From NCBI GenBank assembly GCA_029881215.1, contig JAOUNA010000052.1, forward strand, positions 1 to 16,830: a stretch of DNA of 16,830 nt, written 5' to 3'. The notes under the pieces are model-generated. The model was not told where the DNA came from, ran no database searches, and saw nothing but the letters and a program-made list of their open reading frames with translations. This stretch comes from Myxococcales bacterium. GTDB lineage: Bacteria; Myxococcota_A; UBA9160; SMWR01. Within the stretch, counting starts at the first letter, position 1. The number at the start of each line of letters is the position of its first letter. Shown here one piece after another: positions 1-14,035 of the stretch. The position numbers and the translations under genes are program-made.

Positions 1-837
1 CACGAACTGCAGGAACGAGGTGCCCTGTGCACCCGTGAAGTCACCCGTCGCCTTGTAGGAGTTGTAGTTCGACGCTTGGCCGTTCAGGAACTCGCCATTG
101 CCCGACGGATGCTTGTGGTTGTCATTGATATACGTGCCATGGCAGCCCGCGCACCATTCTCCCATGTTCTGACCGTACGCCGGGTGGCTGGCATCCGACT
201 CGGCATAGCCAGCGGTGACGGCGATCGGCGCCGTTGTGGTGCCGATGTCGCGCAGCAACCGGTAGTTACCGGCGATCGTGCCGGTCACGGGCTCTTCCCC
301 GTACGAACCCGACACGGAGATCGGGAGCGCGCCCGCCGCCGTGCCGCCCTGCACCTGGCCGTGCGGATTGTGGCAGCTGTTGCAGCCGAGAGCGCTGGCG
401 GGATAGCCGCCGCCAGGCGCCACCGTGTTGGTGCCGTCCGCAGTCAGGCTGAAGTCGATGGCGACTACGTTGTGACCCATGTTGTCGGGGTCGGACGTCA
501 CCGGTGTGCCGCGTACCACGTTCGTGTAGGGCGTGGTCAACCAGAAGAAATCGCCGCCCGGTGAGAACTTGCTGCCGTTGTTGCTGAGCACGGCGTAGCT
601 TCTGGACGGGTTGCCGTGGCAGTTCAGACAAGTCGAGCTCGCGTCTGTGCCCTTCAGCAGGGTGTTGTTGGGCGTGCCCGAAACCGGGTTATCCGGCGAG
701 TTGTGCATGCTGTGGCACCCGTCGCAGTGTGCGACGCCGCCCTCGTGGAAGGCGAGTGCCGTGTTGGCAAAACCGAGAGTCAGAAGCCCGGCCAGCACAG
801 CAACGCCCTGCACGAGCGTGTGACTATTGATCCTCAT
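1..837 (-). CDS. Multiheme c-type cytochrome. N-terminal ~279 aa are present; the C-terminus runs off the window start.
   Basis: Manual minus-strand translation from the ATG at 837..835 gives MRINSHTLVQGVAVLAGLLTLGFANTALA, a signal peptide. Four CXXCH heme-binding motifs follow: CDGCH, CLNCH, CNSCH and CAGCH (the last is the reverse complement of nt 138-152). GC3 is high. The ORF is open to the window edge, so it is absent from the ORF track. Confidence 0.85.
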   Translation of the reverse strand, partial: MRINSHTLVQGVAVLAGLLTLGFANTALAFHEGGVAHCDGCHSMHNSPDNPVSGTPNNTLLKGTDASSTCLNCHGNPSRSYAVLSNNGSKFSPGGDFFWLTTPYTNVVRGTPVTSDPDNMGHNVVAIDFSLTADGTNTVAPGGGYPASALGCNSCHNPHGQVQGGTAAGALPISVSGSYGEEPVTGTIAGNYRLLRDIGTTTAPIAVTAGYAESDASHPAYGQNMGEWCAGCHGTYINDNHKHPSGNGEFLNGQASNYNSYKATGDFTGAQGTSFLQFV

Positions 838-1975
838 TTTCCAGATCCTCCAAGTGATTGGAATCCTCATCTGCAATGAACTCGAGCCGAGCAGATACCC
901 GCTTTTCTTCGACGGTCTGTTCGGTTTCTTGTGACACCGGTGACGGTGTCGTGATCCCGCTTGCGGGATCGCTGCTCTGTGATGAACGTGACGTTTCGTA
1001 GGTTATTCCGAAGACACTCACTCCTCTGTTTGCGGCTTGGCCGACGTAGACGTTTCCGCTGGTGTCGATGACCAGATCATCTGGCACGATCAAGTTGGAG
1101 GGCTGATCGCCGCGGTAACCGAATTCGGTCTGGAATTCGAGCTCGGAGCTGAAGACCAGAACCACGGAGCGCAGTCGGTCCGTGACGTACACGTATCCCA
1201 TCGCATCCGTGGCGATGCCCGCGGCGACGCCGAACTTGCCCGTTCCGCTCCCGCTTCGACCGAACTGTGTCAACGTGCCGTCAGCGGACAGGCGATACGC
1301 GACGAAGAGAGTCGGAACGGTGAAGAACAGGTTGCGGTTTGCGTCGACAGCAAGACCGCCGAGGTCGGCGTTCTGGAGCTTCTTCTTCTGGCGATCGATG
1401 TTCTGCAGCTGATCCGGGCCCGCATCGTCGAGCGCGAGGCTGGGACGCAGCGCGGCTTTGAGGTCGTATCCGCGCCGGAAATATCCGGCTTCATCGAGCT
1501 CGAGGACGCGCATGGCGTTCGAATCGACCAGATAGAGGGATCCGTTCTGATACAGCAACTGGTCTGCGAGGAATTGTTTGTAGGCAGCCGGGACGTTCTT
1601 GAGCTCGAGCTCAGCGAGGTACTCGCCGCGGTAGTTGAGGAGATGGACCGCGGTGGTCTGATAGCCCGAGGTCAAGAGGAAGATGCTTCCGTCCTGGCCG
1701 ACCGCGATGTCCGCGGCACTGGCATAGGCATCTCCGAAGACGAAGATTTCCATGCCGTGCTCGTCGAAGACGCGAATGTCGTTGTGTCGTTCGTCGAGCG
1801 CATAGACTTCGTTGCGCTCGGGATCGACGGCGAGCTTCGCCCAGTGCGAAGGCACGGGACCGGAGAAGTTGGCCAGGGGATAGCGGAAGGACGCCGCCAC
1901 CTCGGCCCGGCCTGGGAGGGACGCCGCAAGCAGCAGGAGCGCGGCGCAAAGCAGTGTGAGCGTTCGTCCCGTCAT
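824..1975 (-). CDS. Secreted NHL-repeat beta-propeller protein. Likely start is the ATG at 1975, not the track's TTG at 1993.
   Basis: Track ORF 824..1993. Signal peptide MTGRTLTLLCAALLLLAASLPGRAEV. Repeated YVTD/VAVD/LLTSG-type NHL blade motifs. The C-terminal tail is acidic and S/T-rich. Its last codons overlap the cytochrome start (ATGAGGATCAATAG), consistent with translational coupling. Confidence 0.8.
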   Translation of the reverse strand: MTGRTLTLLCAALLLLAASLPGRAEVAASFRYPLANFSGPVPSHWAKLAVDPERNEVYALDERHNDIRVFDEHGMEIFVFGDAYASAADIAVGQDGSIFLLTSGYQTTAVHLLNYRGEYLAELELKNVPAAYKQFLADQLLYQNGSLYLVDSNAMRVLELDEAGYFRRGYDLKAALRPSLALDDAGPDQLQNIDRQKKKLQNADLGGLAVDANRNLFFTVPTLFVAYRLSADGTLTQFGRSGSGTGKFGVAAGIATDAMGYVYVTDRLRSVVLVFSSELEFQTEFGYRGDQPSNLIVPDDLVIDTSGNVYVGQAANRGVSVFGITYETSRSSQSSDPASGITTPSPVSQETEQTVEEKRVSARLEFIADEDSNHLEDLENEDQ

Positions 1976-1988
1976 CACTGGCGGGTTG

Positions 1989-2004
1989 TGCAATGGTTGT
2001 GCCG
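1989..2004 (-). promoter_or_regulatory. Candidate sigma-54 (RpoN) -24/-12 promoter CGGCAC-N5-TTGCA on the minus strand, reading into the NHL/cytochrome operon.
   Basis: Minus-strand sequence is CTTCGGCACAACCATTGCACAACCCGCCAGTGATG. The GG and GC elements are exactly 10 nt apart with GGCAC/TTGCA flanks. An NtrC-type activator gene lies 4.7 kb away. Caveat: the GC element sits only about 14 nt before the ATG at 1975. That implies a near-leaderless transcript or a different start. Confidence 0.35.
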
Positions 2005-2477: not shown

Positions 2478-3827
2478 ATGACAGTGGTCCCGCGAAGCGC
2501 GCGTCAGGGCAGGAGGATGCTCCTCGCGGTCGTCTTGGCGATCGGCATTTCCCCAGCCACGCAGGCCGCGATTCCCGCAGTGGAACGAGTGGCCTTGATC
2601 GCTCTGTACGACAGCACAGATGGTGACCACTGGGACGAGAACGCCGGCTGGAAGACGGCGCCCCTCGCGGCGGACGGATTCGCCCTGCCCGGTACGGAGT
2701 GTGCGTGGTTCGGCGTCCTCTGTGACGCCGGAGATACGACCGTGCAGATGTTGCTCCTCTTCTGGAACGACCTGTCCGGCAGTCTTCCTCCCGAGCTGGG
2801 AGATCTTGGGAACCTTCTGGATCTCTCCCTCGATGGGAACCATCTCACGGGCGCCATTCCTCCGCGGCTGGGAGACCTCGCCAAGCTCCAGAGTCTCTAC
2901 TTGGATAGCAACCAGCTCTCCGGCGCCATACCGGCCGACTTGGGGAGCCTTGCAGAGATTCGCAACCTCTATCTCCGAGGCAATCAGCTGTCGGGCCCGA
3001 TTCCTTCTCAATTGGGAAGTCTGGCCAGGCTCGAGGATCTCCGCCTCAGCGAGAATCAGCTGTCTGGCAGCATCCCCCCGACGCTCGGGAGCCTCGGGAG
3101 CTTGCGGGTGCTCTCGCTCTACGAAAACGATCTATCCGGCAGCATTCCCCCCGAGCTGGGCGATCTTGCCAATCTCGAAATCCTCTGGCTGGACGCCAAT
3201 CAGCTCTCCGGCAGCATTCCCTCGGAACTCGGGAAGCTTGCCCGCCTGCAGGTGTTCTGGGCCTTCAGCAATCAACTGACCGGGAGTGTTCCCGCGGCGC
3301 TGGGAGCTCTCGTCGATCTCCGTTCTCTCTATCTCAACGGCAATCACCTGGCCGGCAGTCTGCCGCCGGAGCTGGGAGGTCTTGCGAGCCTTCTCCAGCT
3401 CTATCTCTACGACAACCAGCTCACCGGAAGCATTCCCGCCGGGCTCGGCAGTCTTGCAAATCTCGACCGCCTGTATCTGGGCGGCAACCAGCTGTCGGGC
3501 GCCATTCCGCCGGAGCTCGGCAGTCTCGGAAAACTCCGTCGACTTCTGCTCGACCGCAATCAGCTGGAGGGTCCGCTTCCGCTCGAGCTGCTCGGTCTCA
3601 GCAGCCTGGTCGATGCTTCGAGCAATCTGTGTGAAAACCATCTCTACACAGACGACGCTTCGCTCCGCGATTTTCTGAACAGCAAGCAGATCGGTGGCGA
3701 TTGGGAGGCTTGTCAGATTCTTCCGATTCCCTCCGTTCCCGGCAGCGCTCTCCTCGTGATCTTCGCGCTCCTCACAGGATGTGCCTTGTGGCTGCTGCGA
3801 CCATCGATCCCGGTGCATGCGTCGTAG
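2478..3827 (+). CDS. Secreted plant-type leucine-rich-repeat protein with the architecture of a receptor-like protein: signal peptide, LRRNT_2-like cap, 12 LRRs, Cys cap, C-terminal TM/PEP-CTERM-like anchor.
   Basis: Track ORF 2226..3827. The first 84 codons are R/P-rich junk. AGGGAGG at 2471-2477 precedes ATG 2478 / GTG 2484, followed by signal peptide RSARQGRRMLLAVVLAIGISPATQAA. The cap ALIALYDSTDGDHWDENAGWKT...CAWFGVLCD matches the plant LRRNT_2 pattern. Twelve repeats of NxLSGxIPxxLGxLxxLxxLxL follow. The C-terminus is ...CENHL...EACQILPIPSVPGSALLVIFALLTGCALWLLRPSIPVHAS. Confidence 0.9.
   Translation: MTVVPRSARQGRRMLLAVVLAIGISPATQAAIPAVERVALIALYDSTDGDHWDENAGWKTAPLAADGFALPGTECAWFGVLCDAGDTTVQMLLLFWNDLSGSLPPELGDLGNLLDLSLDGNHLTGAIPPRLGDLAKLQSLYLDSNQLSGAIPADLGSLAEIRNLYLRGNQLSGPIPSQLGSLARLEDLRLSENQLSGSIPPTLGSLGSLRVLSLYENDLSGSIPPELGDLANLEILWLDANQLSGSIPSELGKLARLQVFWAFSNQLTGSVPAALGALVDLRSLYLNGNHLAGSLPPELGGLASLLQLYLYDNQLTGSIPAGLGSLANLDRLYLGGNQLSGAIPPELGSLGKLRRLLLDRNQLEGPLPLELLGLSSLVDASSNLCENHLYTDDASLRDFLNSKQIGGDWEACQILPIPSVPGSALLVIFALLTGCALWLLRPSIPVHAS
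2748..3612 (+). repeat. Twelve tandem ~72-bp imperfect direct repeats (the LRR units) inside the LRR gene.
   Basis: Recurring DNA words at 72-bp spacing (e.g. caatcagctgtc(c/g)ggc..., ggcagcattcc, ctctatct) correspond to the 24-residue protein repeat. Confidence 0.8.
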
Positions 3828-3917
3828 AGCCAGCGGATCCGCGACCCGTGGATTGAGCGAAATGACAGATTTCCGATCGTGCACAATGCGAGGCCCCGCA
3901 TGACTTCCAGGATCCCG

Positions 3918-4856
3918 ATGCCGAGCGATTGCTCGAAACGGATGCGCTACCTCGCGATTCTCCTGGTGCTTGCTCCGTTGCTGGCATTTGCGGCGAATTG
4001 CAGCGAGCAAGAGCCGACAGCGACTGCGAGCCAGGAGCCTCAGAGATCGATCCGGATCGGCCTCATTCCGGAGCAGAACATCTTCCTTCAGAAGAAGCGC
4101 TACCAGCCGCTCGCAGACTACCTCTCGGAGAAGACTGGTGTGCGCATCGAGCTTCGCGTGCTCTCCAGATACGGGAACATCATCCAGAATTTCGTTTCCA
4201 AAGGTCTGGACGGGGCGTTCTTCGGCAGCTTCACGGCGGCACTGGCGCACCGGAAGCTCGGTGTCGAGGCCGTGGCGAGACCGGAATATCCGGACGGCAG
4301 CTCGACATATCACGGCCTCCTCTTCGTTCGGAAAGACAGCGGAATCCGGAATGGAAACGACATGAAGGGGAAGCGTTTTGCCTTCGTGGACAAGGCAACC
4401 ACCGCCGGATGGCTGCTTCCCCTCTACTATTTCAAGACCCAGGGCATTCGGGACTACCGTTCCTGGCTCAAGGAATCGTACTTCGCGGGAACCCACGAGG
4501 GCGCGATCTACGACGTCCTCGAGAGAAACGCCGACATCGGGGCCGCGAAGAACACGGTATTCGAGGCGCTCGCACGCGAAGATCCCCGAATCTCTGAGGA
4601 TCTGCTGATTCTGGCCCGATCCCCGGATGTACCCGAAAATGGCTTGTGCGTGCGAAAGACGCTCGACGAGCCGCTCAAGCGAAAGCTCAGGGAAACCCTT
4701 CTGGGCCTCGATACGACCAGAGAGGGGAAGAGGATCTTGAAGAAATTCGGTGCGCGCCGATTCATCCAGACGAGCGAGAACGACTACGCGGTGGTGTTCG
4801 AGTATGCACGGGAGATTGGGCTCGATCTCGAGACGTACGACTACATGAACGAGTAA
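3918..4856 (+). CDS. Orphan periplasmic substrate-binding protein of the PhnD/phosphonate-binding family. No ABC permease or ATPase is present nearby.
   Basis: Track ORF 3879..4856; probable start is the ATG at 3918 or 3942. Signal peptide MRYLAILLVLAPLLAFAANCS. Family pattern IRIGLIPEQN...PLADYL...GV.IEL......Y..I......G.DGAF.G.......H..LG.E....P....SS.YHGLLFVRKDSGI....DMKGKRFAF.D..TTAGWLLP..YF...GI. Confidence 0.8.
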   Translation: MPSDCSKRMRYLAILLVLAPLLAFAANCSEQEPTATASQEPQRSIRIGLIPEQNIFLQKKRYQPLADYLSEKTGVRIELRVLSRYGNIIQNFVSKGLDGAFFGSFTAALAHRKLGVEAVARPEYPDGSSTYHGLLFVRKDSGIRNGNDMKGKRFAFVDKATTAGWLLPLYYFKTQGIRDYRSWLKESYFAGTHEGAIYDVLERNADIGAAKNTVFEALAREDPRISEDLLILARSPDVPENGLCVRKTLDEPLKRKLRETLLGLDTTREGKRILKKFGARRFIQTSENDYAVVFEYAREIGLDLETYDYMNE

Positions 4857-4898
4857 CCGCGTGGCGGCGCCGAGTCCCGCGCGGCTCGAGAGCAGTCG

Positions 4899-6746
4899 AT
4901 GAAGAAGAAGATCTTCATAGGGTTCGTGATCCTGACCGCCTGCTTCGTGGGGGGCGGCATCTACATCGCTCGCTCCATCGACCAGGTGATCTCGAAGCTC
5001 GAAGCTGTCATCACGCTGCACCAGGTCGAGATCCTGCGGAAGAGCTTCCTTACGGACGTCAAGGCCGTTCAGCAGGATCTGCTGCTCAAGGATTCGCCCC
5101 ACGAGGCAGAGGATGATTCCGTCATTAGGCGCGGTGAGAAGATGGCGGAGGAGGTCGCCGGCTGTTTCGCCTGTCACCACGCGGAGCCGGCACTCCATCA
5201 GCTGAAGAGTCTACAGGGCGAAATTGACCTGTATCAGAAAGCTCTCAGCAGGGTCTACACGACCCGGGCAAACGCCGAGCGATTGAGTCGACAGAAGCAG
5301 GTCGCGTTCCACATCGGACAGCACTTGATCGAAGAAATCGACAACATCATCGAGTACTCGTCACGCGCACTGGGAAACCGGACGCAGCTCGCGAAGCACA
5401 GCATCGCCGAGACGAAGAAACACCTGACTTTCCTCGTGATTGCGGGACCGGTGATCGGTCTGGCGATCGCTCTGTACTTCATCCACTACCTGACGCGTTC
5501 GATGGGAGCCCTCATCGACGGGACTCGAAAGCTGGAATCCGGTCAGCTGGATCACAAGATCGAAGGCCTGCGGGACGAGTTTGGTGAGCTGGGGGCCTCG
5601 ATCAACGAGATGGCTCATTCGCTGGGCAAGATGATCCGCGCGATCGAGGAGAGCCAGAAGCGGTACAGGATGTTGTTCGAGAGCGCGGGAGATGGAATCC
5701 TCATGCTCGAAGCCGAGGGGGAGAATGTCGGCGGAGTCGTGTCAGCAAATCAGGCGGCTGCGGATATGCATGGCTACACCGTCGCGGAGATGTTAGCGCT
5801 CAACCTTCGAGATCTCGATGCCAGTGAGGACACAACAGCGGCGCGCAAGCGCATCGATCGGATCCTGGGCGGAGAGTGGATCAATGTGGAAAGCAGCCAT
5901 CGAAGGAAGGACGGCTCGATCTTTCCGGTCGAGATCAGCGCAGGGCTGCTCGAGTTCGAGAATCAAAAATACATTCTCGCGTTCGATAAGGACATCACGG
6001 AGCGAAAGCAGGCGGAAGACGCCTTGCAGCGGGCCGAGCAACTGGTGGTCGTGGGCGAAATGGCAGCCGGGCTGGCCCATGAAATCAAGAATCCTCTCGC
6101 TGGAATCAAGGTGTCGATCGAGGTCTTGACGAGCGAGCTGCAGCTCGAGCAAGAGGACAAGGAAGTCTTCGAGCGGATCATCGACGAAATCAATCGTATC
6201 GAGACGCTGCTGAAGAATTTGCTCAGCTACGCAACACCCCCGAGGCCGCAGTTTGCGCTGGTCGACGTGAACAAGATCGTCGAGACGGCGATCAAGACGG
6301 CGGCGTTCACGCTGAAGAGTCCGGGCGGGGAGGCGAAGGAGAAGGACGCGAGGGATGTCCGATTCGAGAAGAGGCTGAGTGAGCATTTGCCGCAGATCGT
6401 CGCAGACGGGGCTCAGCTGCAGCAGGTACTCCTGAATTTGCTGATCAACGCGATGCACGCGATTCAAGGCTCCGGTTGCATTTCGGTTGCTACTGCCGCT
6501 GGCACTGCGCATGCGGTCCAGATCGTCGTGTCGGATACGGGAAAGGGCGTCGGCGGCGCGGACATGGAAAAGATCTTCCTGCCGTTCTTCACGACGAAGC
6601 CGAAGGGAACAGGGCTCGGACTGTCGATCTGCAAGCGCTTGATCGAGCAGCACGGCGGCTCGATTGAAGTTGCGCGCGGTCCGCAGGGAGGCCTCATGTT
6701 CACGATCAGTCTGCCGGTCGAGCAGGGGGAGGGCAGTCACTCGTGA
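4899..6746 (+). CDS. Sensor histidine kinase. Its periplasmic domain (about 150 aa) carries a CXXCH c-type heme motif, followed by HAMP, PAS, HisKA and HATPase_c.
   Basis: TM1 is IFIGFVILTACFVGGGIYIA and TM2 is LTFLVIAGPVIGLAIALYFIHYL. The loop between them contains GCFACHH (nt 5163-5180). A PAS domain runs from RYRMLFESAGDGILMLE to ITERKQAE. The H-box is AAGLAHEIKNPL, the N-box LLNLLINAMHA, G1 VSDTGKGV and G2 KPKGTGLGLSI. Confidence 0.9.
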   Translation: MKKKIFIGFVILTACFVGGGIYIARSIDQVISKLEAVITLHQVEILRKSFLTDVKAVQQDLLLKDSPHEAEDDSVIRRGEKMAEEVAGCFACHHAEPALHQLKSLQGEIDLYQKALSRVYTTRANAERLSRQKQVAFHIGQHLIEEIDNIIEYSSRALGNRTQLAKHSIAETKKHLTFLVIAGPVIGLAIALYFIHYLTRSMGALIDGTRKLESGQLDHKIEGLRDEFGELGASINEMAHSLGKMIRAIEESQKRYRMLFESAGDGILMLEAEGENVGGVVSANQAAADMHGYTVAEMLALNLRDLDASEDTTAARKRIDRILGGEWINVESSHRRKDGSIFPVEISAGLLEFENQKYILAFDKDITERKQAEDALQRAEQLVVVGEMAAGLAHEIKNPLAGIKVSIEVLTSELQLEQEDKEVFERIIDEINRIETLLKNLLSYATPPRPQFALVDVNKIVETAIKTAAFTLKSPGGEAKEKDARDVRFEKRLSEHLPQIVADGAQLQQVLLNLLINAMHAIQGSGCISVATAAGTAHAVQIVVSDTGKGVGGADMEKIFLPFFTTKPKGTGLGLSICKRLIEQHGGSIEVARGPQGGLMFTISLPVEQGEGSHS

Positions 6747-8134
6747 CGATGATCAAGGGAAGAATCTTCCTGCTGGACGACGATGAGTTGATTTCTTCAA
6801 TGGTGGCACGATCGCTGAGGAAGGAGGGCTACGAGGTCAAGAGCGAGACGGGCACGGAAGACATCATCAGCAAGATCTCCACGTGGTGCCCGGACCTGAT
6901 CATGCTCGATATCCACCTGGATGAGGAGAAGAGCGGGCTCGACATTCTCGGCGAGCTGAAGCGAGAGGAAATTCCCGGTGAAGTCGTGATGCTGACGGCG
7001 GACGCATCGGCCGAATCAGCGATCACTGCGATGAAGCTCGGCGCAGCAGACTACCTGACGAAGCCCTTCAACATGGCTGAGGTGCAGCTCGTCATCCGGA
7101 AGGTGATCGAGAAGGAGAGGCTCAAGGAAGAGGTCCGGTACCTCAGGAAGGTCGGAACCATCGGTGTTCAGGACCAGATGATCGGTGAGTCTGCGGCGAT
7201 GGTGGAGTTGATGGAGAAGGCGGAAAAGCTCGCAGAGGCTCATGTTCAGAACGTGTTGATTACGGGCGAATCCGGTACCGGGAAGGAGGTCGCCGCGCGC
7301 TATATCCACAACCGGCTGCACGCGAGGCGCGGTGACGAGTACGCACCCTTCATTGCCGTGAATTGTACTGCCTTGCCGGAGCAGCTGTTCGAGAGCGAGC
7401 TGTTTGGCCACGTGAAGGGAGCGTTCACGGACGCGAGGAACGATAAGAAGGGAATGTTCGAGCTCGCCAACGGCGGAACCATTCTGCTCGACGAAATCGG
7501 GGACATGGCAGCGAATCTCCAGAGCAAGCTGCTTCGCGTGCTCGAGGATCGGTCGGTGAGGCGGCTGGGGGGCAAGACGGATCTTCCGGTCGACGTGAGC
7601 GTAATCGTCACGACGAACACGCGGTTGGATGAAGCGGTGAATCTCGGGAAATTCAGGACCGACCTCTTCTATCGATTGAATGCGTTTCCGCTGCACATCC
7701 CGCCGCTGCGAGAGAGACGCGAGGACATCCCGCTGCTTGCGCGGCATTTCCTGCAGTTGTTTGCGCAGAAGTACCTGAAGAGGGCGATTCGGGAGTTTTC
7801 GCCGGAGGCCGAGAGGATTCTTTGTGCGCACGACTGGAAGGGGAATTGTCGCGAGCTGCGGAACGTGATCGAGCGGATCGTGGTGCTGGAGAATGTGGAG
7901 ACGATTCTTCCGGAGCATCTTCCGGCTGCCTTGCTGAAGGAAGAGTTCGTCGAGAGGCGGCGCGCGACTGGATTCGTGCTGCCGGAGCAGGGAATTTGCC
8001 TCGAGGAAGTGGAGAGGGATCTGATCGTTCAGGCGTTGAAGCGCGCGGAGAACAACCAGACGAAGGCCGCGAAATTGCTCGATCTCTCCTACGACTCGCT
8101 GCGGTACCGCATCAAGAAGTACGGGCTGGTGTAG
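6743..8134 (+). CDS. Sigma-54-dependent response regulator of the NtrC family (REC, AAA+ sigma-54 activator, Fis-type HTH).
   Basis: GTG 6743 overlaps the HK stop (GTGA). REC domain: LLDDDE...IMLDIHL...MLTADAS...KLGAADYLTKPF. Walker A GESGTGKE. ESELFGHVKGAFTDA. The arginine-finger region is FYRLNAFPLHIPPLRERREDIP. C-terminal HTH QTKAAKLLDLSYDSLRYRIKKYGL. Confidence 0.92.
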   Translation: MTMIKGRIFLLDDDELISSMVARSLRKEGYEVKSETGTEDIISKISTWCPDLIMLDIHLDEEKSGLDILGELKREEIPGEVVMLTADASAESAITAMKLGAADYLTKPFNMAEVQLVIRKVIEKERLKEEVRYLRKVGTIGVQDQMIGESAAMVELMEKAEKLAEAHVQNVLITGESGTGKEVAARYIHNRLHARRGDEYAPFIAVNCTALPEQLFESELFGHVKGAFTDARNDKKGMFELANGGTILLDEIGDMAANLQSKLLRVLEDRSVRRLGGKTDLPVDVSVIVTTNTRLDEAVNLGKFRTDLFYRLNAFPLHIPPLRERREDIPLLARHFLQLFAQKYLKRAIREFSPEAERILCAHDWKGNCRELRNVIERIVVLENVETILPEHLPAALLKEEFVERRRATGFVLPEQGICLEEVERDLIVQALKRAENNQTKAAKLLDLSYDSLRYRIKKYGLV

Positions 8135-8138
8135 ACGG

Positions 8139-8185
8139 GAGCCGGGGCAGGGCGGGCCCAACAGCCCGACGGCTCAGCCCGGCTC
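8139..8185 (+). terminator. Candidate GC-rich hairpin (GAGCCGGG ... CCCGGCTC, 8-bp stem, long loop) immediately 3' of the response-regulator stop. It has no U-tract.
   Basis: Inverted repeat at 8139-8146 / 8178-8185, five nt after TAG 8132-8134. Confidence 0.2.
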
Positions 8186-8571
8186 TTGGGCGCGCGGATG
8201 ACACGGGCGGAGCTCGCTCTTTTCGAGGACGGCGAGCATGGCGCGCCACAATGCGGGGTGGACGTTCGCCTGCGACACGCCGAGCTGTTGGACGAGGCGG
8301 GAGTGCAGCGGACCGGAAAGCTGCTCGCATTCCGAGCGCGCCAGCTCGCGGTATGGGGCGTTGCGAAGCGAAGCTCGATGGCGGTGAAGCCGATCCCTCG
8401 CCCCAGATCATCTGGAAGACGGCGACAAGGGCGGCGCTGTACTCGTCTTGGTGCTCATCCGGCACGGTCATGGCGAGTCGGCGTGGGGCACGCACCGCAA
8501 GGGCTTCAGTGGGCTCGGAAAGCTCTGGCAGCGTGCGTGCGGCAAGCGCTGGGATCCTCCTGCGGGATCTC

Positions 8572-10923
8572 CTAGCGGAATCCGTGCGACGCGAGAACTC
8601 GGGCGGGGAATCCGGGGCCTTCTTCCTCATCGATTTCGTGCAGGTGCTTGTGCTGTGATGCCATCTCGGTCCTGATCTGGACCAAGACCTGCTGGAACTC
8701 GGGCAGATCCCAGAGCAGCTCGAAGGCCGGATCGAGGGGCAGGATCCACCAGGCCACTCGCGCGCCGGCGGCGACGTCTCGTTGCAACGCGGCCAGTGCG
8801 CGTCCCGGCTCGCCCGCGATGCTATGCGCGAGAACGTCCGCGAAGCCGTGGCCAGAAATGCCGGTCACGGGCAGCTTCTCGATGCTGGAGAGAGTCGCGC
8901 CCAGGAGCTTCACCGCGGCATTCCGGTCGCCGGTCTGCAGGCGCAGCAACGCGAGGCTTGCTGCGGCTGTGTAGTTGCTTCCTTGTACGAGGGGTGGGGT
9001 GCTCAGCAACTCCGGATAGATTCTCTCGTAGACGGCCAACGCGGCTTCGGGATCCACCGACTGAAGCTGCCGGAGCCAGAGGAGATGGGGCACGGCCTGA
9101 TATCCAGAGATGCGATCCGTTCGTGTGGCGAACGCTCGCGCGATCTCGAGCGCTTGCTGCCGGTCCCCAGCGTGAAGCGCGAAGAAATAGCGACCGGTAA
9201 GCGCGAAGTAGGTGTCGGGCGCGGTGGCCAGGAGGACTTCCAGCCACCGCGCTGCGGCCGCCGTGTCGTCCAGGTGCAGGTAGAGATGCACGAGCTCGGC
9301 GAGCATCCAGGGTGCCGGATCGAGCGCCAGGGCCCGGGCGAACCAGCGGATGCTCTCATCGATGCGGCCGAGACTCCAGCCCTGCACGATCGCAAGGGCC
9401 CAGTAGTTGGCCGTGACGTCGGGTGACTTGGCGATGTTGGCGCGCAGCCGCTCGATTCCATCCTCCACGCGCCCCGATGCGGCCAGCGCGTAGCCGAACA
9501 GATATTGAGTCACCACGTTCAGCGGGTCTCGCGCGAGGGCCTTCTCGAGGTGGCGCAGTCCCTCTTCCGGCCGTCCGAGGGTTTCGAGCAGCAGGAAGCC
9601 GTAGAGCTCGTGGGGCCCCGCATCCGGGCTCAGCTCGAACGCGCGCAGGTAGGCCGCCTCTGCGCCAGCCGGGTCGCCGAGCAGTTGGCGCAGACGTCCC
9701 AGCGTGGTGTAGGTCTGCGGAGACTCGGGATCGAGCGCCAGCGCCCGCTCCATGGCGGAGCTGGCCGAACGTTCGGCAACCTCGCGGGAGATCGATCCAA
9801 ACTCGTAGAGATTGGCGTAGATGTTCACCAGCGCTCGTTGGGCCGCGGCAAAATCCGGATCCAGCGCGGCGGCTCGACTGTACCACGAGAGCGCGACCAT
9901 CCCGCTCTGAGCGCCCACGTTCTGATGCGCGGCGCGACCCCTCAGGAAGGCTTCGTACGCCTCGATATTGGTGGTTCCGCCCCAGTCCAGCGCGCTGACC
10001 TGCAGCTCGAGGCGCAGCGCGTTGGTGATCTGCCGCGCAATGTCATCCTGGATTTCGAAGATGTCCTGTAGCTCCCGGTGATACGTCTCCGCCCACAGCT
10101 GGAACCCATCCTTCGCGCTGACGAGCTGCGCCAGCACGTGCACCTGGTTTCCGGAAGTGTGCACGCTGCCTTCGAGGATGGCCTCCACCCCGAGCGCTTC
10201 TCCGATCGTCTTGAGATCGGCATCGCTCCCCTTGAACGAGAACGAAGACGTGCGGCCCACCACCCGCAGACCCTCGAAGCGCGTGCAGATGTTGATCAGC
10301 TCCTCGGCCACGCCCTCGGCGAGATACTCCTGATCCGCGTTGTCACTCAGATTGATGAAGGGCAGCACGGCGAGGGAGCGCGGCGGGGTGGGCCTGGCGG
10401 AGCAGAACTTGACGCCCCAGACGGCGGCAGCCGTGAGCAGGAGCAGGACGGCCGCGCGGGCGACTCGGAGTGGGATGCGGATCTGCGCGGGCGCGGTGTG
10501 GCTCATCGCCGGGGCGTGACGGCGCTCCAGGGCGGGGGGCCACGCTGTGATGCTCTCGCTGCCATGCTCGCCCCGGCCGCATCGCGTCGGCGGGAGGGTC
10601 GCTTCGGGCTCCGGCAGCACGTCGACGTCCGCAACGAATCGGAAGCCGTGCCCGTGCTCGGTGCGCAACAGCTTCTGATGCTCGCCGTCGTCGCCGAGAG
10701 CCCGGCGCGCCTTCTGAACGGATCGCGCCAGCGCGGCCTGGGTTACATTGACGCCGGGCCAGAGCGCGTCGAGCAATTCGCCGCTCGACACGACGCGGTG
10801 GCGTTGCTCGATGAGGTAGGCGAGCACATCGAAAGCCTTGGGCTCCAGCGGAACCCGCTGCCCGCGCCGCAGCAGGCTCCTCGCATCGGTGTCGAGGTGA
10901 TACTCGCCGAACCCGAAGCGCAT
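8572..10923 (-). CDS. Membrane-anchored one-component regulator of the CadC/ToxR type: N-terminal OmpR/PhoB winged HTH, single TM, TolB-N-like periplasmic domain, long TPR region.
   Basis: Track ORF 8572..10962 uses a GTG start; the ATG at 10923 (MRFGFGEYHLD) is more likely. wHTH: LEPKAFDVLAYLIEQRHRVVSSGELLDALWPGVNVTQAALARSVQKARRALGDD...HGFRF. TM: IPLRVARAAVLLLLTAAAVWGV. TolB-N-like segment: LAVLPFINLSDNADQEYLAEGVAEELINICTRFEGLRVVGRTSSFSFKG...ILEGSV...QLWAETYHRELQDIFEIQDDIA. TPR-like AYxxAL repeats fill the rest. Confidence 0.8.
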   Translation of the reverse strand: MRFGFGEYHLDTDARSLLRRGQRVPLEPKAFDVLAYLIEQRHRVVSSGELLDALWPGVNVTQAALARSVQKARRALGDDGEHQKLLRTEHGHGFRFVADVDVLPEPEATLPPTRCGRGEHGSESITAWPPALERRHAPAMSHTAPAQIRIPLRVARAAVLLLLTAAAVWGVKFCSARPTPPRSLAVLPFINLSDNADQEYLAEGVAEELINICTRFEGLRVVGRTSSFSFKGSDADLKTIGEALGVEAILEGSVHTSGNQVHVLAQLVSAKDGFQLWAETYHRELQDIFEIQDDIARQITNALRLELQVSALDWGGTTNIEAYEAFLRGRAAHQNVGAQSGMVALSWYSRAAALDPDFAAAQRALVNIYANLYEFGSISREVAERSASSAMERALALDPESPQTYTTLGRLRQLLGDPAGAEAAYLRAFELSPDAGPHELYGFLLLETLGRPEEGLRHLEKALARDPLNVVTQYLFGYALAASGRVEDGIERLRANIAKSPDVTANYWALAIVQGWSLGRIDESIRWFARALALDPAPWMLAELVHLYLHLDDTAAAARWLEVLLATAPDTYFALTGRYFFALHAGDRQQALEIARAFATRTDRISGYQAVPHLLWLRQLQSVDPEAALAVYERIYPELLSTPPLVQGSNYTAAASLALLRLQTGDRNAAVKLLGATLSSIEKLPVTGISGHGFADVLAHSIAGEPGRALAALQRDVAAGARVAWWILPLDPAFELLWDLPEFQQVLVQIRTEMASQHKHLHEIDEEEGPGFPARVLASHGFR

Positions 10924-11253
10924 GGGCCGCAAGCCTCTTCGCCCCGAGGCGCATTTTGCCACGGCGCAGCGAGCAAAGGAAAGAGCGCGATTGCTGCGCC
11001 TGCGGGTAACACAATCACTCGCGCGTGTCTTTCTGGGCGTGGGGGAAGAGCCAATGTGAGGGGGAGCAGCGTGTTGCGCGCCTAGTCGGATTAGCCCCCA
11101 GACTCGGACGCTGCGTGCGACGACGCATGCCCCGGCCCGCGCGTCAGGGGGTCACGCCACCGCTGCGTTCAGCCGATGCGGGGAGGTTGGCGCGGATTCC
11201 CTGCGCGATGGGCGCGCGGAGCGGATCCTCGCCCGGATTCGAGCTCGACGCCG

Positions 11254-11664
11254 ATGTACCTCCGTTCGCGAGGCTTCGCGCTCGCCAGCATTGCGCTGGC
11301 GCTCTTTCTCGGCTGGAAGGTCCTGGCGCGTGGCGCCCACGAGGTCGTGGTGCTGCGCACCGAGACGCTCCAGGGGCAGGACCACTACGCCACCCTCTGG
11401 GTGGTCGATGCCGAGAAGTTCGTGTGGATCCGCGCCGAGAGCCCCACTCGGCGCTGGCTTCCGGCCGTGCGCAAGAATCCCCAGGTAACGCTGCGGCGCG
11501 GCGGTCGCGATCTGCGTTATCGCGCCACGATCTGGGACACACCGGAGGCGCGTGCTTACGTGGATCCGATGTTCCGCGCCAAGTACGGTCTGGCAGATAC
11601 CGCGCGCGCAATCCTGACGCAGCGCGAGACCATTCCCATCCGGCTCGAGCCGCAGGCGCGCTGA
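11254..11664 (+). CDS. Small N-terminally membrane-anchored protein with a DUF385-like (deazaflavin-dependent nitroreductase / PNPOx-like split-barrel) fold.
   Basis: Track ORF 11176..11664; the ATG at 11254 gives MYLRSRGFALASIALALFLGWKVL, a TM helix. Pattern VVLRTETLQG...LWVVDAEKFVWIRAES...WLPAVRKNPQVTLRRGG...ATIWDTPEARAY...IPIRLEP resembles the DUF385 consensus (W..NL.ANP.V ... T.EER ... IPIvv.EP). GC3 is high, and the overlapping minus-strand ORF is R/P-rich junk. Confidence 0.55.
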   Translation: MYLRSRGFALASIALALFLGWKVLARGAHEVVVLRTETLQGQDHYATLWVVDAEKFVWIRAESPTRRWLPAVRKNPQVTLRRGGRDLRYRATIWDTPEARAYVDPMFRAKYGLADTARAILTQRETIPIRLEPQAR

Positions 11665-11672
11665 CGTCGCCG

Positions 11673-12461
11673 CTAACGCTTGTCCGTGTCCTTGGAGTGG
11701 ACGATCTCGTCGATGGTGAAGCCTTCGCTCTCCGCGAGCTTCTCGATTTCCCTGCGCACGCGCTCCTTCGCCGCGACGCGGCGCTTCTCGATCTCGTCTC
11801 CAATGCGCTTGCGCAGCGACTCGAGCTCGGGCAGAGGATAGTCGGCGAGATCGAGGTCCTGTGCTCGGCGCGCGACGCGTACCGACGCCGGCGCATCGCT
11901 GTGGCGCTCGGCGCTCGGCTTCGGCGCGCTCTTCTTTTCGGCGGGCTCTTTGGCGGGCTCTGGTTTCGACTCTTCGAAGCGGATGGCGGTGTCCATGTCA
12001 TCGAGCGGATCCGAGCCGGGTTTCGTCTGGGGCGCCTGGCGCTTGTCGGACCGCGCGTCGAGGACCTGGGGCGCCTCGTCGAGCGCATCCGCGGAGTCGT
12101 CGGTGTCGAGGGAGGACGCGGCATCCAGCTCGGCGCTCTTGCTGGCGTCGACCAATGTTGCGACCCGATCCACGCCCCGGCGCAGCTCCGGGCCGGGCTT
12201 TTCGTACGCGATGGCGAAGCCGCCGGCGGTGTGTCGCGCGACCTTGCCCTCGAGCTGAAAAGGCTTGTCCTGATTGGGGAGAGATACGTACAAGATCGTG
12301 TGGGCACCGACCTTCGGCTGAAGCTCTACATCCTCGATGCGCGCGCCTGTGTACGAGATGTCGGCGAGAATCCCTTCTCCTTCCTGACGCTGGGAGGAGA
12401 AGTGCGTCTCGAACCAGGTGCGGATGCGGGGACTCCGACGTGTCGCGCTCGCTTGGTCCAT
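11673..12461 (-). CDS. PilZ-domain protein (putative c-di-GMP receptor) with an acidic/Lys-Pro-rich disordered linker and a C-terminal charged coiled-coil helix.
   Basis: Track ORF 11673..12656; the ATG at 12461 is preceded by GAGGGGTGG. The PilZ signature is RRSPRIR (RxxxR) followed 22 residues later by DISYTG (DxSxxG). The linker is DDSADALDEAPQVLDARSDKRQAPQTKPGSDPLDD...KPEPAKEPAEKKSAPKPSA. The tail is LPELESLRKRIGDEIEKRRVAAKERVRREIEKLAESEGFTIDEIV. Confidence 0.75.
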   Translation of the reverse strand: MDQASATRRSPRIRTWFETHFSSQRQEGEGILADISYTGARIEDVELQPKVGAHTILYVSLPNQDKPFQLEGKVARHTAGGFAIAYEKPGPELRRGVDRVATLVDASKSAELDAASSLDTDDSADALDEAPQVLDARSDKRQAPQTKPGSDPLDDMDTAIRFEESKPEPAKEPAEKKSAPKPSAERHSDAPASVRVARRAQDLDLADYPLPELESLRKRIGDEIEKRRVAAKERVRREIEKLAESEGFTIDEIVHSKDTDKR

Positions 12462-12633
12462 GGGTTCCACCCCTCTTGTCGTCCAGGGAAGCCCGGGCTG
12501 CCGGCCCGGCGAGCCCGCCGCGATAGGAACGCGGCTCTGGCTATGGGGGTGAATCGGCTGGGATCGAAGCGGACCTGAGATCGATTCTCGTCTCTCCGCA
12601 GCCACGTTGCTCGCGACTGCGGGGGCCCGACGC

Positions 12634-12999
12634 TCAGCGAATGCGCAGGAAGGCAAGCCCGACCGCGAGCATCACGCAGGCGCAACCCGCGGCCGTGAGA
12701 AGGAATCCGGCACCGCCCAGGTAGAACCACCGCAGCACGGCGGCGCGCTCGGGGCCCGAGAGATCCGCGTGCAGGGCGGTCGGTCGCAGCCACCAGCGCG
12801 CCGGCAGCGGCCCGTGCGCGCGCAGCGCGCGGTACAGCCGCACGTGGTACCAGAATCCGGTTGGCACGCCCAGCAGCATGCCCAGCGCCACGCAGCCGAT
12901 CCCGGCCGACAGGACCCACTCGAGCGGGAGGATCGGGACGAGCCAGCCAATCGCGCAGAGCACGACGAGCGCGGCCAGCGCGATCAGCGTTTCACGCAC
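12634..12999 (-). CDS. Small hypothetical integral membrane protein (3 predicted TM helices, W/R-rich loop).
   Basis: GTG start at 12999. Strong GC3 bias. Hydrophobic segments LIALAALVVLCAIGWLVPILPL, VLSAGIGCVALGMLLGV and FYLGGAGFLLTAAGCACVMLAVGLAFL. Same strand as the flanking SBP and PilZ genes. Confidence 0.5.
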   Translation of the reverse strand: MRETLIALAALVVLCAIGWLVPILPLEWVLSAGIGCVALGMLLGVPTGFWYHVRLYRALRAHGPLPARWWLRPTALHADLSGPERAAVLRWFYLGGAGFLLTAAGCACVMLAVGLAFLRIR

Positions 13000-13062
13000 G
13001 CCTCGCCCATCGTCCGCGCCGCGCGCGCGCTTGAACGCGTGGGCGTCGATCCACCGCTGCAG

Positions 13063-13905
13063 CTAGGGAAGTTGTTCGAGCCAGCTTGCGTCTTCGAACC
13101 AGCGATCCTGGAGCTGCGCGAGCCTGCCGGTGAACTCGAGACCCTGCAGCAGGTTGTCGACGAAGTTGAGCAGCAGCGGGTCCCCGGCCGGGAGCGCGAT
13201 GCCGATCGGCTCGTGGGTCAGCCGGGTGATCACCGAGACCAGATCGCTGTCGGGGTTCCGGGCGTGGGCGACCAGGCAGATGGGATAATCGGCGATCATC
13301 ACGTCCGCCTCGCCCGAGAGCACGCGGCTCACGGCCGTGTCGTAGTCGGGCGCGGTCGTCAGCCGCGCCGCCGGAATCAGCTTCTCGACGAACGCCTGGC
13401 TCGTGGAGCCCTGCAGCGCGGTGACGGTGAGGTTTGCACTGTTGATTTCCGCGGCGCTCTCTGCCGAGGCAAGGCTGCTGGCCTTGGTGAGCACGCACTT
13501 GCCGGAGACGAAGTACGGACCCGCGAAGGCCACCCTCAGGTTGCGCTCGGGCGTGATGGTCATGGCGGAGAGCACCATGTCCACCTTGCCGGTCTCGAGC
13601 GCTCCGAGCAGCTCCGAGAACTGCAGCCTCTCGAGTCGCAGCTTCACGCCCATTGCAGACGCGAGGTACGCGGCCAGATCCGGCTCGAGTCCGATGATCT
13701 CACCGCTGCGCGTCGTCATGTTGAGCGGCGGCATGCTGGCTGCGGTCCCGACCACCAGCTCCCCGCGCGAGAGAATGCGGTCCAGGACCGGCGAGTAGGT
13801 GGCCGCCGGCGTGCCCCCGACGTGCGAGCAGCCGAGCAGCAGGAGCAGCGGCGCGGCCAGGGTCCAGCGCGTCCAACGAGTCGGTCGGGTCTGCGGTCGG
13901 TGCAT
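13063..13905 (-). CDS. Orphan lipoprotein substrate-binding protein of the SBP_bac_3 (polar amino-acid binding) family.
   Basis: Track ORF 13063..13920; the ATG at 13905 follows GGGAGGAG with a 5-nt spacer. Lipobox LLLLGC. Family pattern LVVGTAASMPPLNM...GEIIGLEPDLAAYLASAMGVKL......F..L..AL..GKVDMVLSAMTIT.ER...V.FAGPYF.SG....GEADVMIADYP. No permease or ATPase gene lies within the window. Confidence 0.85.
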   Translation of the reverse strand: MHRPQTRPTRWTRWTLAAPLLLLLGCSHVGGTPAATYSPVLDRILSRGELVVGTAASMPPLNMTTRSGEIIGLEPDLAAYLASAMGVKLRLERLQFSELLGALETGKVDMVLSAMTITPERNLRVAFAGPYFVSGKCVLTKASSLASAESAAEINSANLTVTALQGSTSQAFVEKLIPAARLTTAPDYDTAVSRVLSGEADVMIADYPICLVAHARNPDSDLVSVITRLTHEPIGIALPAGDPLLLNFVDNLLQGLEFTGRLAQLQDRWFEDASWLEQLP

Positions 13906-14028: not shown

Positions 14029-14035
14029 GGGGAGC

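Follow-up and report, generated by a model that had tools for sequence, protein, structure and literature searches.

A predicted four-helix-bundle kinase sensor family with an invariant c-type haem motif, encoded beside an orphan PhnD-family binding protein

What might a sensor histidine kinase perceive when a CXXCH motif lies in its periplasmic loop and its gene follows that of a solute-binding protein with no transporter beside it? This arrangement is found in a 16,830-nucleotide stretch of contig JAOUNA010000052.1 from a Myxococcales bacterium (here, the window). C-x-x-C-H is the recognition motif of haem lyases and, to our knowledge, examples of signalling proteins that carry haem c covalently are very few.

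Genes and domains of the module

Three co-directional genes (Table 1) encode a PhnD-family binding protein, a histidine kinase with two transmembrane segments and a sigma-54 regulator of the NtrC type. The open reading frame of the binding protein (3879-4856) is covered over its full length by the Pfam profile Phosphonate-bd (E 4.7e-64, profile positions 1-242 of 242) and also matches the NCBIfam model TIGR01098 above its cut-off. Gene callers on four public contigs place the start at ATG 3918, which leaves a product of 312 residues with the signal peptide MRYLAILLVLAPLLAFA; on these two grounds GTG 3879 is merely the start of the longest open reading frame. The original prediction of an exported PhnD-family protein is thereby upheld, with its start corrected from 3879 to 3918, as is its statement that no ABC permease or ATPase accompanies the protein: a search of the window and the 21.8 kb of source contig revealed neither.

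The kinase contains HAMP (residues 194-242), PAS (255-368), HisKA (386-445) and HATPase_c (503-608) domains according to Pfam. Its loop of residues 25-175 is assigned to the periplasm by the positive-inside rule and by the cytoplasmic HAMP domain that follows TM2. The last gene was predicted to encode a translationally coupled sigma-54 regulator, and its product has the complete domain set of an enhancer-binding protein (Pfam Response_reg, Sigma54_activat at E 5e-63, AAA_lid_14 and HTH_8). All features of the NtrC family are present, from the receiver aspartate through an AAA+ domain with Walker A to the Fis-type helix-turn-helix, and D56, T84, K106 and the Walker A motif GESGTGKE can be read directly from the sequence; the sigma-54 loop, GAFTDA, is one residue away from the GAFTGA consensus. 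The kinase stop codon (TGA, 6744-6746) and the regulator start (GTG, 6743-6745) form a GTGA overlap of four nucleotides, with an ATG at 6749 as a second possible start. The window contains no match to Rfam RNA families. A 688-codon open reading frame on the minus strand (3132-5198) is rejected as a gene, since its apparent conservation merely reflects the conserved binding-protein gene on the opposite strand.

Table 1. Positions in the window of the module, the kinase segments and the neighbouring candidate operon
Feature	Coordinates	Strand	Basis
Hexahaem c-type cytochrome gene, 5' part, 378-391 aa, runs off the window	1..837	-	
Exported NHL-repeat beta-propeller protein, first gene of the candidate operon	824..1975	-	Pfam NHL/SBBP, gene call
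Exact sigma-54 core promoter GGCAC-N5-TTGC, intergenic, 13 nt before the NHL ATG	1990..2003	-	
Exported orphan PhnD-family solute-binding protein, 312 aa	3918..4856	+	Pfam, gene calls, signal peptide
Sensor histidine kinase, 615 aa: TM1, periplasmic four-helix bundle, TM2, HAMP, PAS, HisKA (H394), HATPase_c	4899..6746	+	
TM1, residues 5-24, after cytoplasmic MKKK	4911..4970	+	Sequence; models: continuous helix 2-62
Periplasmic sensor domain, residues 25-175, predicted four-helix bundle; founds an unannotated family	4971..5423	+	
H41, helix 1, candidate distal haem ligand, same bundle level	5019..5021	+	Inferred from helix register
CFACHH (C89, C92, H93, H94), predicted covalent haem c site, H93 proximal ligand	5163..5180	+	
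TM2, hydrophobic helix, residues 176-198	5424..5492	+	Sequence, models
HAMP domain	5478..5624	+	Pfam E 4.7e-9
Cytoplasmic PAS domain	5661..6002	+	Pfam PAS_9/PAS_8/PAS
Kinase core, HisKA + HATPase_c	6054..6722	+	Pfam E 4.5e-16 and 4e-24
Sigma-54 enhancer-binding response regulator	6743..8134	+	REC D56, AAA+ GESGTGKE/GAFTDA, Fis-type HTH

The closest known system is AioXSR. Like AioX-AioS-AioR, and also ArxXSR and ArrXSR, the module combines a transporter-less PhnD-like protein, a membrane kinase and a sigma-54 regulator, encoded co-directionally in the order X-S-R, which recurs in about 25 related loci. Among solved structures ArrX (E 2e-14) and AioX (6e-12) are detectable relatives of the binding protein, but PtxB (5e-31) and PhnD (4e-21) are nearer. 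The arsenic-specific pocket of AioX involves Cys106 and Asp210. Unlike the known arsenic systems, the module has no aio, arx or arr molybdoenzyme genes in the 21.8 kb around it, and its candidate targets are genes for an NHL propeller and a multihaem cytochrome; for AioS, which was compared through the literature, no mention of a CXXCH haem motif turned up. In AioXSR the sensing component is considered to be the binding protein, AioX, which is believed to act on AioS once it carries arsenite, and AioR acts at an RpoN promoter of the neighbouring respiratory operon (PMC5908839). On balance we favor reading the present module as a three-component signalling system of the X-S-R type, sharing its gene order and protein families with AioX-AioS-AioR, in which the kinase would take two inputs with the help of a haem c and the regulator would serve a sigma-54 target operon.

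The sensor domain and its CXXCH motif

The loop was originally held to be a haem-c sensor domain of the PAS-like type, an assignment that had to be abandoned. A profile built from 14 homologues of the sensor domain retrieved from the PDB neither 3B42/3B47 nor any other structure beyond noise at E <= 10, kinase residues 1-200 gave no Pfam match even at E <= 10, including DUF3365/Tll0287, and the domain is all-helical in two AlphaFold models. PAS-like haem-sensor homology is thus contradicted by sequence, profile and predicted fold, the alpha/beta Cache fold being absent from the models, and the haem claim stands on other grounds. The predicted models show an antiparallel four-helix bundle that is continuous with TM1 and TM2; its fold matches include fusions of cytochrome b562. 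The Pfam family 4HB_MCP_1 left a sole trace, at E 0.18, in one family member.

The domain belongs to a family of 315 clusters (50% identity) at E <= 1e-3, or 252 at E <= 1e-10. A HAMP domain follows it in all 71 members scanned, with HisKA (58), REC (16), GGDEF (7), EAL (5) and fused Sigma54_activat (2) among the outputs, so the sensor is modular across kinase, GGDEF/EAL and fused sigma-54 activator proteins. The pattern-found loci described below come from Nitrospirota, Desulfobacterota, Acidobacteriota and Anaeromyxobacter. Pfam, NCBIfam and the PDB contain no annotation for the family, whose members carry generic public names (AtoS, HAMP-domain protein, nitrate/nitrite kinase). The literature searched held nothing relevant on a helical CXXCH sensor or on a PhnD-like protein with a kinase in electron-transfer clusters, and we regard the periplasmic four-helix-bundle sensor with an invariant c-type haem motif as an undescribed family.

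The CXXCH motif was correctly located in the periplasmic loop of the kinase, with the small correction that 5163-5180 encodes CFACHH and the preceding glycine of GCFACHH lies at 5160-5162. In the predicted models it occupies the C-terminal, membrane-proximal end of helix 2. Among 131 representatives that are at most 50% identical, C89, C92 and H93 are conserved in 100%, R47 in 98%, H94 in 97% and H41 in 91%, figures drawn from HMMER representatives only, as the motif residues of the pattern-found loci are fixed by design. CXXCH is invariant in every family member that covers its position, while the residues between its cysteines vary freely, with about 60 different dipeptides; from residue frequencies, the chance of finding such a motif in a 150-residue loop is estimated at roughly 3e-4. 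Helix register, the sole basis for speaking of a haem pocket, puts H41 and R47 of helix 1, CXXCHH at the end of helix 2 and the small residues A136 and G140 of helix 4 at one level of the bundle. The confidence of the AlphaFold model is lowest around residues 61-100, as would be expected with the cofactor missing. On the other side, H41 is missing in 9% of family members, and at position 150 the present kinase has isoleucine where most of the family has methionine, so that the axial ligands are put forward tentatively.

Absolute conservation of C-x-x-C-H around dozens of alternative dipeptides, a periplasmic site and cytochrome-rich lineages together strengthen the predicted c-type haem, and covalent attachment of haem c to the kinase sensor, as judged from the motif, is likely. 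The Ccm system requires little beyond an exported CXXCH. No ccm or ccs genes occur in the window; the contig of one relative (L005) has ResB and CcsA-type genes, and the multihaem cytochrome genes on the same contig as the module suggest a cytochrome c maturation system in the host.

Two other uses of these residues have to be weighed. C89, C92, H93/H94 and H41 might bind zinc, copper or iron and make the domain a periplasmic metal sensor, by analogy with CZB, a zinc-binding four-helix domain. This seems quite improbable, since a metal site has no need of an invariant C-x-x-C-H spacing with variable intervening residues, which is the pattern that haem lyases recognize; moreover, an exported CXXCH is nearly enough for Ccm, the hosts are rich in cytochrome c, and the sensor domain has no match to Pfam CZB. 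We think it highly improbable that the CXXC pair is a cofactor-free thiol/disulfide switch reporting oxidative conditions in the periplasm: a CXXC placed at the end of a helix is a well-known redox-active arrangement, and most hosts are anaerobes, but a switch would leave unexplained the invariant H93, the nearly invariant H94 and the conserved H41, R47, A136 and G140, and in such hosts an exported CXXCH would be a substrate for haem attachment.

A haem c at this site would place the domain near, but outside, the known haem sensors. GSU0582, GSU0935 and Tll0287 (DUF3365, 'sCache_heme') have periplasmic domains with a strictly conserved CXXCH between two transmembrane segments; these domains occur with kinase, GGDEF and other outputs in cytochrome-rich bacteria and are proposed to sense redox state or NO (PMC12889525, PMC8396549). 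The present sensor shares the strictly conserved periplasmic motif between two transmembrane helices, whereas its all-helical bundle differs from their alpha/beta Cache fold, no sequence or profile similarity connects the two, and the motif ends helix 2 instead of lying in an inserted helix of the Cache domain. DcrA of Desulfovibrio vulgaris, a transmembrane signalling protein of a sulfate reducer, likewise has a c-type haem site in its N-terminal periplasmic domain and senses oxygen or redox state (PMC2886117, PMC8396549), a likeness based on its published description. DcrA is a chemoreceptor, however, and chemoreceptor signalling domains are absent among the 170 family sequences examined. 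One haem within a four-helix bundle also recalls cytochrome c' and cytochrome b562. These are soluble electron or gas carriers rather than receptor domains, neither has a sequence match to the present domain, and in cytochrome c' the CXXCH is found close to the C-terminal end of helix 4, in contrast to the end of helix 2 here. The Cache-haem proteins GSU0582, GSU0935 and Tll0287 form the only well-defined periplasmic family, delineated in 2026. If our reading is true, the present domain would represent a second family with no structural relation to the first, using the most common helical receptor scaffold; haem-c sensing would then have arisen more than once, and a cofactor would have been added to a class of four-helix bundles thought to bind ligands directly.

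Pairing of the kinase with the binding protein

A degenerate DNA pattern that describes the kinase sensor motif only (H41, E44, R47, L50, Q58 and CxxCHH) located 105 genomic loci. In 82 of them the immediately preceding gene, on the same strand, encodes a PhnD-like protein; the median gap is 17 bp, and stop and start codons overlap in many loci. ABC ATPase signatures were seen in only two of the loci with a binding protein and are adjacent in none. The three-component reading put forward originally is much strengthened by this recurrence, and the expectation that no ABC transporter genes adjoin the module holds across its loci. That the adjacency is incidental, the PhnD-like protein serving an ABC importer encoded elsewhere with no contact to the kinase, would agree with the transport roles of its best solved relatives (PtxB, PhnD and HtxB). 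We give this very little credence, because the short gap and the upstream position persist across phyla, transporter genes adjoin none of these loci, and stop/start overlaps tie the two genes together in many. In 20 of the 105 loci there is no adjoining binding protein, so that the sensor domain can evidently act alone or with a partner encoded elsewhere.

Residues at the tip of the bundle follow the presence of the binding protein. T121 is found in 67 of 67 sequences from loci with it and in 10 of 17 without (p 4e-6, in a comparison that ignores phylogenetic non-independence), and S117, D73 and A124 are likewise conserved specifically in the loci with a binding protein. Residues at the haem level are equally conserved in both groups, in loci whose search pattern itself fixed H41, E44, R47, L50, Q58 and H94. 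The conserved adjacency and the tip residues offer indirect support, at the sequence level, for coupling between binding protein and kinase, and we propose that the binding protein is a co-sensor docking on the kinase.

Would the binding protein then suffice as the only sensor, the bundle being a docking platform whose haem, if present, or whose motif, if merely structural, feeds no signal? Its presence in 78% of loci, the co-variation of the tip residues and the role ascribed to the binding protein in AioXSR, with the same families and gene order, all speak for such a division of labour. We nevertheless hold it to be unlikely: no part of the domain is more conserved than CXXCHH and the residues on its level, which are kept equally well in the 20 loci without a binding protein, and a structural role would not explain why the motif defines the domain across kinase, GGDEF and sigma-54 outputs.

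Binding proteins acting on a helical periplasmic kinase sensor are also known from XylFII-LytS and TorT-TorS. The resemblance of the four-helix bundles is generic (8% identity in the structural alignment), the partners there are a sugar-type binding protein and TorT as opposed to a PhnD-like one, and we know of no cofactor in LytS or TorS. A receptor that integrates redox state with a chemical cue is suggested by the near-obligate association between the present sensor and an orphan binding protein.

We tentatively suggest that the domain is the first cofactor-bearing four-helix-bundle extracytoplasmic sensor, one whose covalent haem c may exchange electrons or share ligands with the periplasmic cytochrome pool while its tip reads a docked, loaded PhnD-like protein, and that its family (at least 315 clusters) may be devoted to controlling, through two inputs, the multihaem cytochrome and porin-cytochrome (MtrAB-like) electron conduits of Nitrospirota and Desulfobacterota. 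In the X-S-R reading that we favor, the exported, transporter-less PhnD-family protein would capture a small, probably anionic, ligand and dock at the membrane-distal tip of the kinase's periplasmic bundle. The cytochrome c maturation machinery would most likely attach one haem c to the CXXCH that closes helix 2 near the membrane, H93 serving as proximal ligand and H41 of helix 1 being the likeliest distal one. The kinase could thereby receive two periplasmic inputs, whether the binding protein is occupied and in which redox or ligation state its own haem stands, and relay them through TM2, HAMP and PAS to the kinase core, which would phosphorylate D56 of the sigma-54 activator. Within the window, the activator's target would most likely be the divergent NHL-propeller/hexahaem operon.

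Candidate target genes and genomic company

The divergent operon, which runs on the minus strand from 1975 past the first position of the window, is the most likely candidate target of the regulator here. Its second gene overlaps the end of the NHL gene, which implies a common operon, and encodes a hexahaem cytochrome (L001, 4803-5939) with six CXXCH motifs and a match to Paired_CXXCH_1. The GGCAC-N5-TTGC element ahead of the operon is the single exact match in the window against 0.13 expected, although 24 of 200 shuffled sequences contain at least one match, so that by itself it is not significant. The same element precedes NHL orthologues at the same spacing in L005 and L040, with a one-mismatch version in L039, and because it stands in different reading frames among these orthologues it is conserved at the DNA level. 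Counting against the promoter is its closeness to the ATG, since at 13 nt the mRNA would be almost leaderless, with a predicted start within about 3 nt of that codon. Searches of the window for upstream activator sites, both as inverted repeats and of the TGG-N8-CCA type, gave nothing specific; dyads are present in L005, L039, L040 and L117 and are not clearly present in the window. In the closest relatives, L036 and L085, the divergent hexahaem gene is preceded by a sigma-70-like promoter and has no sigma-54 promoter.

NHL or hexahaem genes adjoin the module in seven loci, with NHL orthologues in L005, L039, L040 and L117 and hexahaem orthologues in L005, L041, L108 and L117. Multihaem cytochrome genes are frequent neighbours of the module, which probably controls cytochrome genes, and the wider genomic company of the family comprises hexa- to decahaem cytochromes, MtrB-like porins and NHL propellers. 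This company suggests control of electron-transfer machinery in hosts that play key parts in the cycling of iron, manganese and sulfur and in bioelectrochemistry, and would, if the suggestion is true, provide a long-sought handle on the control of extracellular electron transfer genes. The large unannotated family includes at least one cultured host, Pelotalea chapellei DSM 13688 with locus L065, which makes the hypothesis directly testable.

Module genes and the sensor family

The three genes of the module, all in one direction, fill 3879/3918-8134 of the window. The PhnD-family protein has a full-length Pfam match and also matches NCBIfam TIGR01098 above threshold; its start is taken as the ATG at 3918 (312 amino acids), following the gene calls on four public contigs with an identical kinase, and its N-terminal signal peptide reads MRYLAILLVLAPLLAFA. 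Since the kinase has an MKKK start and two hydrophobic helices followed by HAMP, PAS, HisKA and HATPase_c domains (Pfam), its intervening loop is periplasmic. The regulator, whose GTG overlaps the kinase TGA (GTGA), retains the phospho-acceptor residues, the Walker A motif and the GAFTDA loop. Neither the window nor 21.8 kb of its source contig (ENA ERZ27296367 k141_1555750, a sediment-type metagenome assembly) contains an ABC permease or ATPase gene. The domain matches, the coordinates and the absence of ABC genes confirm what the original prediction had read here, namely an orphan binding protein, a kinase with a CXXCH loop and a GTGA-coupled sigma-54 regulator.

Positions of the module genes, the candidate target operon and recurrent neighbors (window coordinates unless a locus is named)
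Feature	Position	Strand	Remarks
Sigma-54 core GGCAC-N5-TTGC	2003-1990	-	sole exact match in the window
NHL-propeller gene, exported	1975-824	-	downstream of the sigma-54 core
Hexahaem cytochrome gene	837 to 1 and off the window	-	start overlapped by NHL gene end
PhnD-family binding protein	3918-4856 (longest ORF from 3879)	+	Pfam Phosphonate-bd, full length, E 4.7e-64
Sensor kinase	4899-6746	+	MKKK, TM helix 5-24, 150-residue loop, TM helix 176-198
CFACHH (C89, C92, H93, H94)	5163-5180	+	in the kinase periplasmic loop
Response regulator	6743-8134	+	REC, sigma-54 interaction domain, AAA lid, Fis-type HTH (Pfam)
MtrA/porin operon loci	L010 1-6970; L012, L074, L080, L096, L100, L102, L107, L110
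DtxR/FeoA loci	L012 5615-6274; L100 6553-7212; L090, L110, L115, L070, L063, L111

Among 1.84 billion cluster representatives, searched exhaustively with HMMER, 315 proteins have the sensor domain at E ≤ 1e-3, and 252 remain when the limit is E ≤ 1e-10. Every family member listed that spans the position carries CXXCH, nearly always starting at residue 89. Among 131 representatives of at least 200 amino acids, C89, C92 and H93 are invariant, followed by R47 (98%), H94 (97%), H41 and Q58 (both 91%), Y112 and G140 (both 89%) and A136 (88%), while about 60 different combinations occupy the two positions between the cysteines; H68 and M82 are kept among close relatives, not family-wide. HAMP follows the domain in all 71 members scanned, and the outputs comprise HisKA/HATPase (58), receiver (16), GGDEF (7), EAL (5) and directly fused sigma-54 activator (2) domains, modularity of the kind that marks a true sensor domain. 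In two members of the alignment of family representatives, the CXXCH bundle and HAMP are fused straight to a sigma-54 activator with HTH, the predicted architecture of a membrane-bound one-component enhancer-binding protein. Pfam (2025), NCBIfam (2026), the PDB and the literature that could be searched yielded no account of a helical CXXCH sensor domain. The finding is real and goes beyond a lone motif: the sensor family is large and unannotated, is paired almost obligately with an orphan binding protein, and has links to genes of electron transfer.

Several observations concern the surroundings of the module. The space from the NHL promoter region to the binding-protein gene holds a leucine-rich-repeat gene (2517-3827, 436 amino acids), not seen in related loci, which is on the same strand as the binding-protein gene and 90 nt 5' of it. 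An antisense ORF of 688 amino acids (3132-5198, minus strand) overlaps the binding-protein gene and the kinase start; it is probably no gene, grouping with like ORFs in eight loci only as a shadow of the conserved gene. Convergent with the regulator gene is that of a 796-residue protein (8572-10962, minus strand) with an N-terminal OmpR-type winged-helix DNA-binding domain and many TPR repeats. The module has a G+C content of 0.58-0.59 (about 3500-8000) versus 0.66-0.72 downstream (8000-16830), and the GC skew is strongly positive (0.16-0.18) over 5500-8000; the module may therefore be of different origin.

Fold and predicted haem site of the periplasmic domain

Pfam and NCBIfam coverage of the kinase begins only at residue about 164. 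Residues 1-200 and six homologous fragments returned only noise from Pfam at E ≤ 10, the traces being 4HB_MCP_1 (E 0.18) and, where the motif lies, cytochrome-c families (E 0.03-0.11), and a 14-homologue profile found no meaningful match among all PDB sequences, including the Geobacter haem-PAS structures. AlphaFold2 produced four helices and no strands from 14 sequences (pLDDT 70.7); with 25 sequences the pLDDT rose to 84.0 (pTM 0.65), and the helices span 2-62, 72-90, 96-121 and 126-200. The original assignment to PAS-like haem sensors, for which similarity to the Geobacter domains was expected, is therefore wrong. As any four-helix bundle tends to match any other, with designed ones scoring almost equally high, the safe conclusion from these models is confined to fold class, a Tar/NarX-type four-helix bundle continuous with both transmembrane helices. 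The modeled CXXCH would lie at the end of helix 2, in the membrane-proximal turn of the bundle.

By helix register, H41/R47 of helix 1, CXXCHH and the small residues A136/G140 of helix 4 fall at one level, an arrangement that a haem pocket able to use bis-His ligation would show. A Cys2His2-type metal site in place of haem is geometrically possible, and the fold matches include CZB, a four-helix domain that binds zinc. Covalent haem c is probable, because an invariant C-x-x-C-H with free x-x occurs in an exported domain, and because the hosts are cytochrome-rich, multihaem cytochrome genes adjoin the module and System II maturation genes lie on a relative's contig. The Ccm system recognizes little beyond an exported CXXCH. 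Among the loci listed, almost all hosts are cytochrome-rich anaerobes or microaerophiles (Nitrospirota/Thermodesulfovibrionia; Desulfobacterota, including Geobacteraceae and Desulfobulbaceae; Acidobacteriota; Anaeromyxobacter). Model confidence is lowest at residues 61-100, around the motif, which we counted in favor of haem. The predicted haem thus gains comparative support, although the fold first proposed for it does not.

The binding protein as partner

A degenerate DNA pattern built from sensor-domain residues only, which fixes H41, E44, R47, L50, Q58 and CxxCHH, retrieved at least 120 loci from species-representative genomes. Among the 105 listed with at least 900 bp upstream, a PhnD-like gene is immediately upstream on the same strand in 82 (median gap 17 bp), elsewhere in 3 and absent in 20, comparative support for the three-component reading. 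ABC ATPase signatures occur in only six ORFs across all loci listed, two of them in binding-protein loci and neither adjacent. The binding proteins are a close-knit subfamily; all have signal peptides or, in some cases, lipoboxes. Relative to PtxB they retain 'GTH' and have 'FFGS' for 'YFGP' (Phe in 97% of the subfamily) and 'ATTAG' for 'ASTSS', which suggests an anion-type pocket of altered specificity.

At the membrane-distal tip, T121 is present in 67/67 loci with a binding protein versus 10/17 without (Fisher p 4e-6, shared ancestry ignored), and S117, D73 and A124 are likewise far more conserved with the partner by the same ancestry-blind test. This points to docking at the tip, the mode known from TorT-TorS and XylFII-LytS. 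The haem-level residues, by contrast, show no difference in conservation between the two groups, pointing to haem as the common, ancestral feature. Paralogous sensors, at least two in each of several single MAGs and usually each with its own binding protein (L015/L018, L069/L073, L020/L101, L039/L112, L061/L087, L043/L124), suggest diversified ligand specificity.

In architecture the module is a three-component system of the AioXSR type (PMC5908839), and in sensor fold its kinase groups with the binding-protein-dependent helical sensors LytS and TorS. An arsenic system is ruled out, because Mo-enzyme genes are absent from the 21.8 kb and PtxB is the closer relative of the binding protein. By its chemistry the domain would count as a periplasmic haem-c sensor, alongside DcrA, GSU0582/GSU0935 and sCache_heme; it is not a member of the last, since fold and sequence both fail.

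Genomic company and a candidate target operon

An ORF with at least three CXXCH motifs lies within 8 kb in 27 of the 122 loci listed. In 24 loci listed, among them a Mn-oxidizing Nitrospirota enrichment MAG (L033), the PhnD-like gene comes after another gene of binding-protein type (Pfam ABC_sub_bind), and in about ten of these one tight operon encodes, in order, an MtrA-like multihaem cytochrome (9-10 CXXCH), an MtrB/PioB-like porin (Pfam score at threshold), the ABC_sub_bind protein, the PhnD-like protein and the CXXCH-bundle kinase. In eight loci listed, the neighbor of the kinase gene encodes an iron-dependent repressor of the DtxR type that carries FeoA at its C-terminus.

The sigma-54 core of the window is intergenic, in AT-rich DNA, 13 nt ahead of the NHL-propeller ATG; alone the match is not significant (0.13 expected; at least one in 24 of 200 shuffles). 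Orthologous NHL and/or hexahaem genes adjoin the module in L005, L039, L040, L041, L108 and L117, and NHL orthologues have at the same position TGGCAC-N5-TTGCA (L005), TGGCAC-N5-TTGCT (L040) and TGGCAC-N5-GTGCT (L039). Because the reading frame of the element relative to the ATG differs between loci, it is conserved at the DNA level. In L005, L039, L040 and L117, the stretch about 90-130 nt 5' of the NHL gene holds tandem TGG-N8-CCA dyads that resemble enhancer-binding sites (e.g. TGGTGAATTCACCA, TGGGAATTTTCCCA); the window has no convincing instance, only TTCGCCA direct repeats at about 2110-2135. On these comparisons, the NHL/hexahaem operon is a tentative candidate for the regulator's target, with the odds slightly against it.

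In three loci the core is just 11-13 nt from the NHL ATG (window 1975-2003, minus strand; L005 15985-16013; L040 about 5270-5300, minus strand), so that the sigma-54 transcript would have little or no leader, an unusual arrangement. L005 (ENA ERZ25039600 contig_87435, a long-read assembly), a 35-44% identical relative, has its module split by apparent frameshifts, an IS110-family transposase between module and NHL/cytochrome operon, and ResB/CcsA cytochrome maturation genes with hemA 6-9 kb upstream. On the window's own contig, upstream of it (L001 1-2801), a second multihaem cytochrome (427 residues, Paired_CXXCH_1) is followed by a further NHL-repeat protein and a beta-propeller protein, so that the module borders on a larger cluster of cytochrome and propeller genes.
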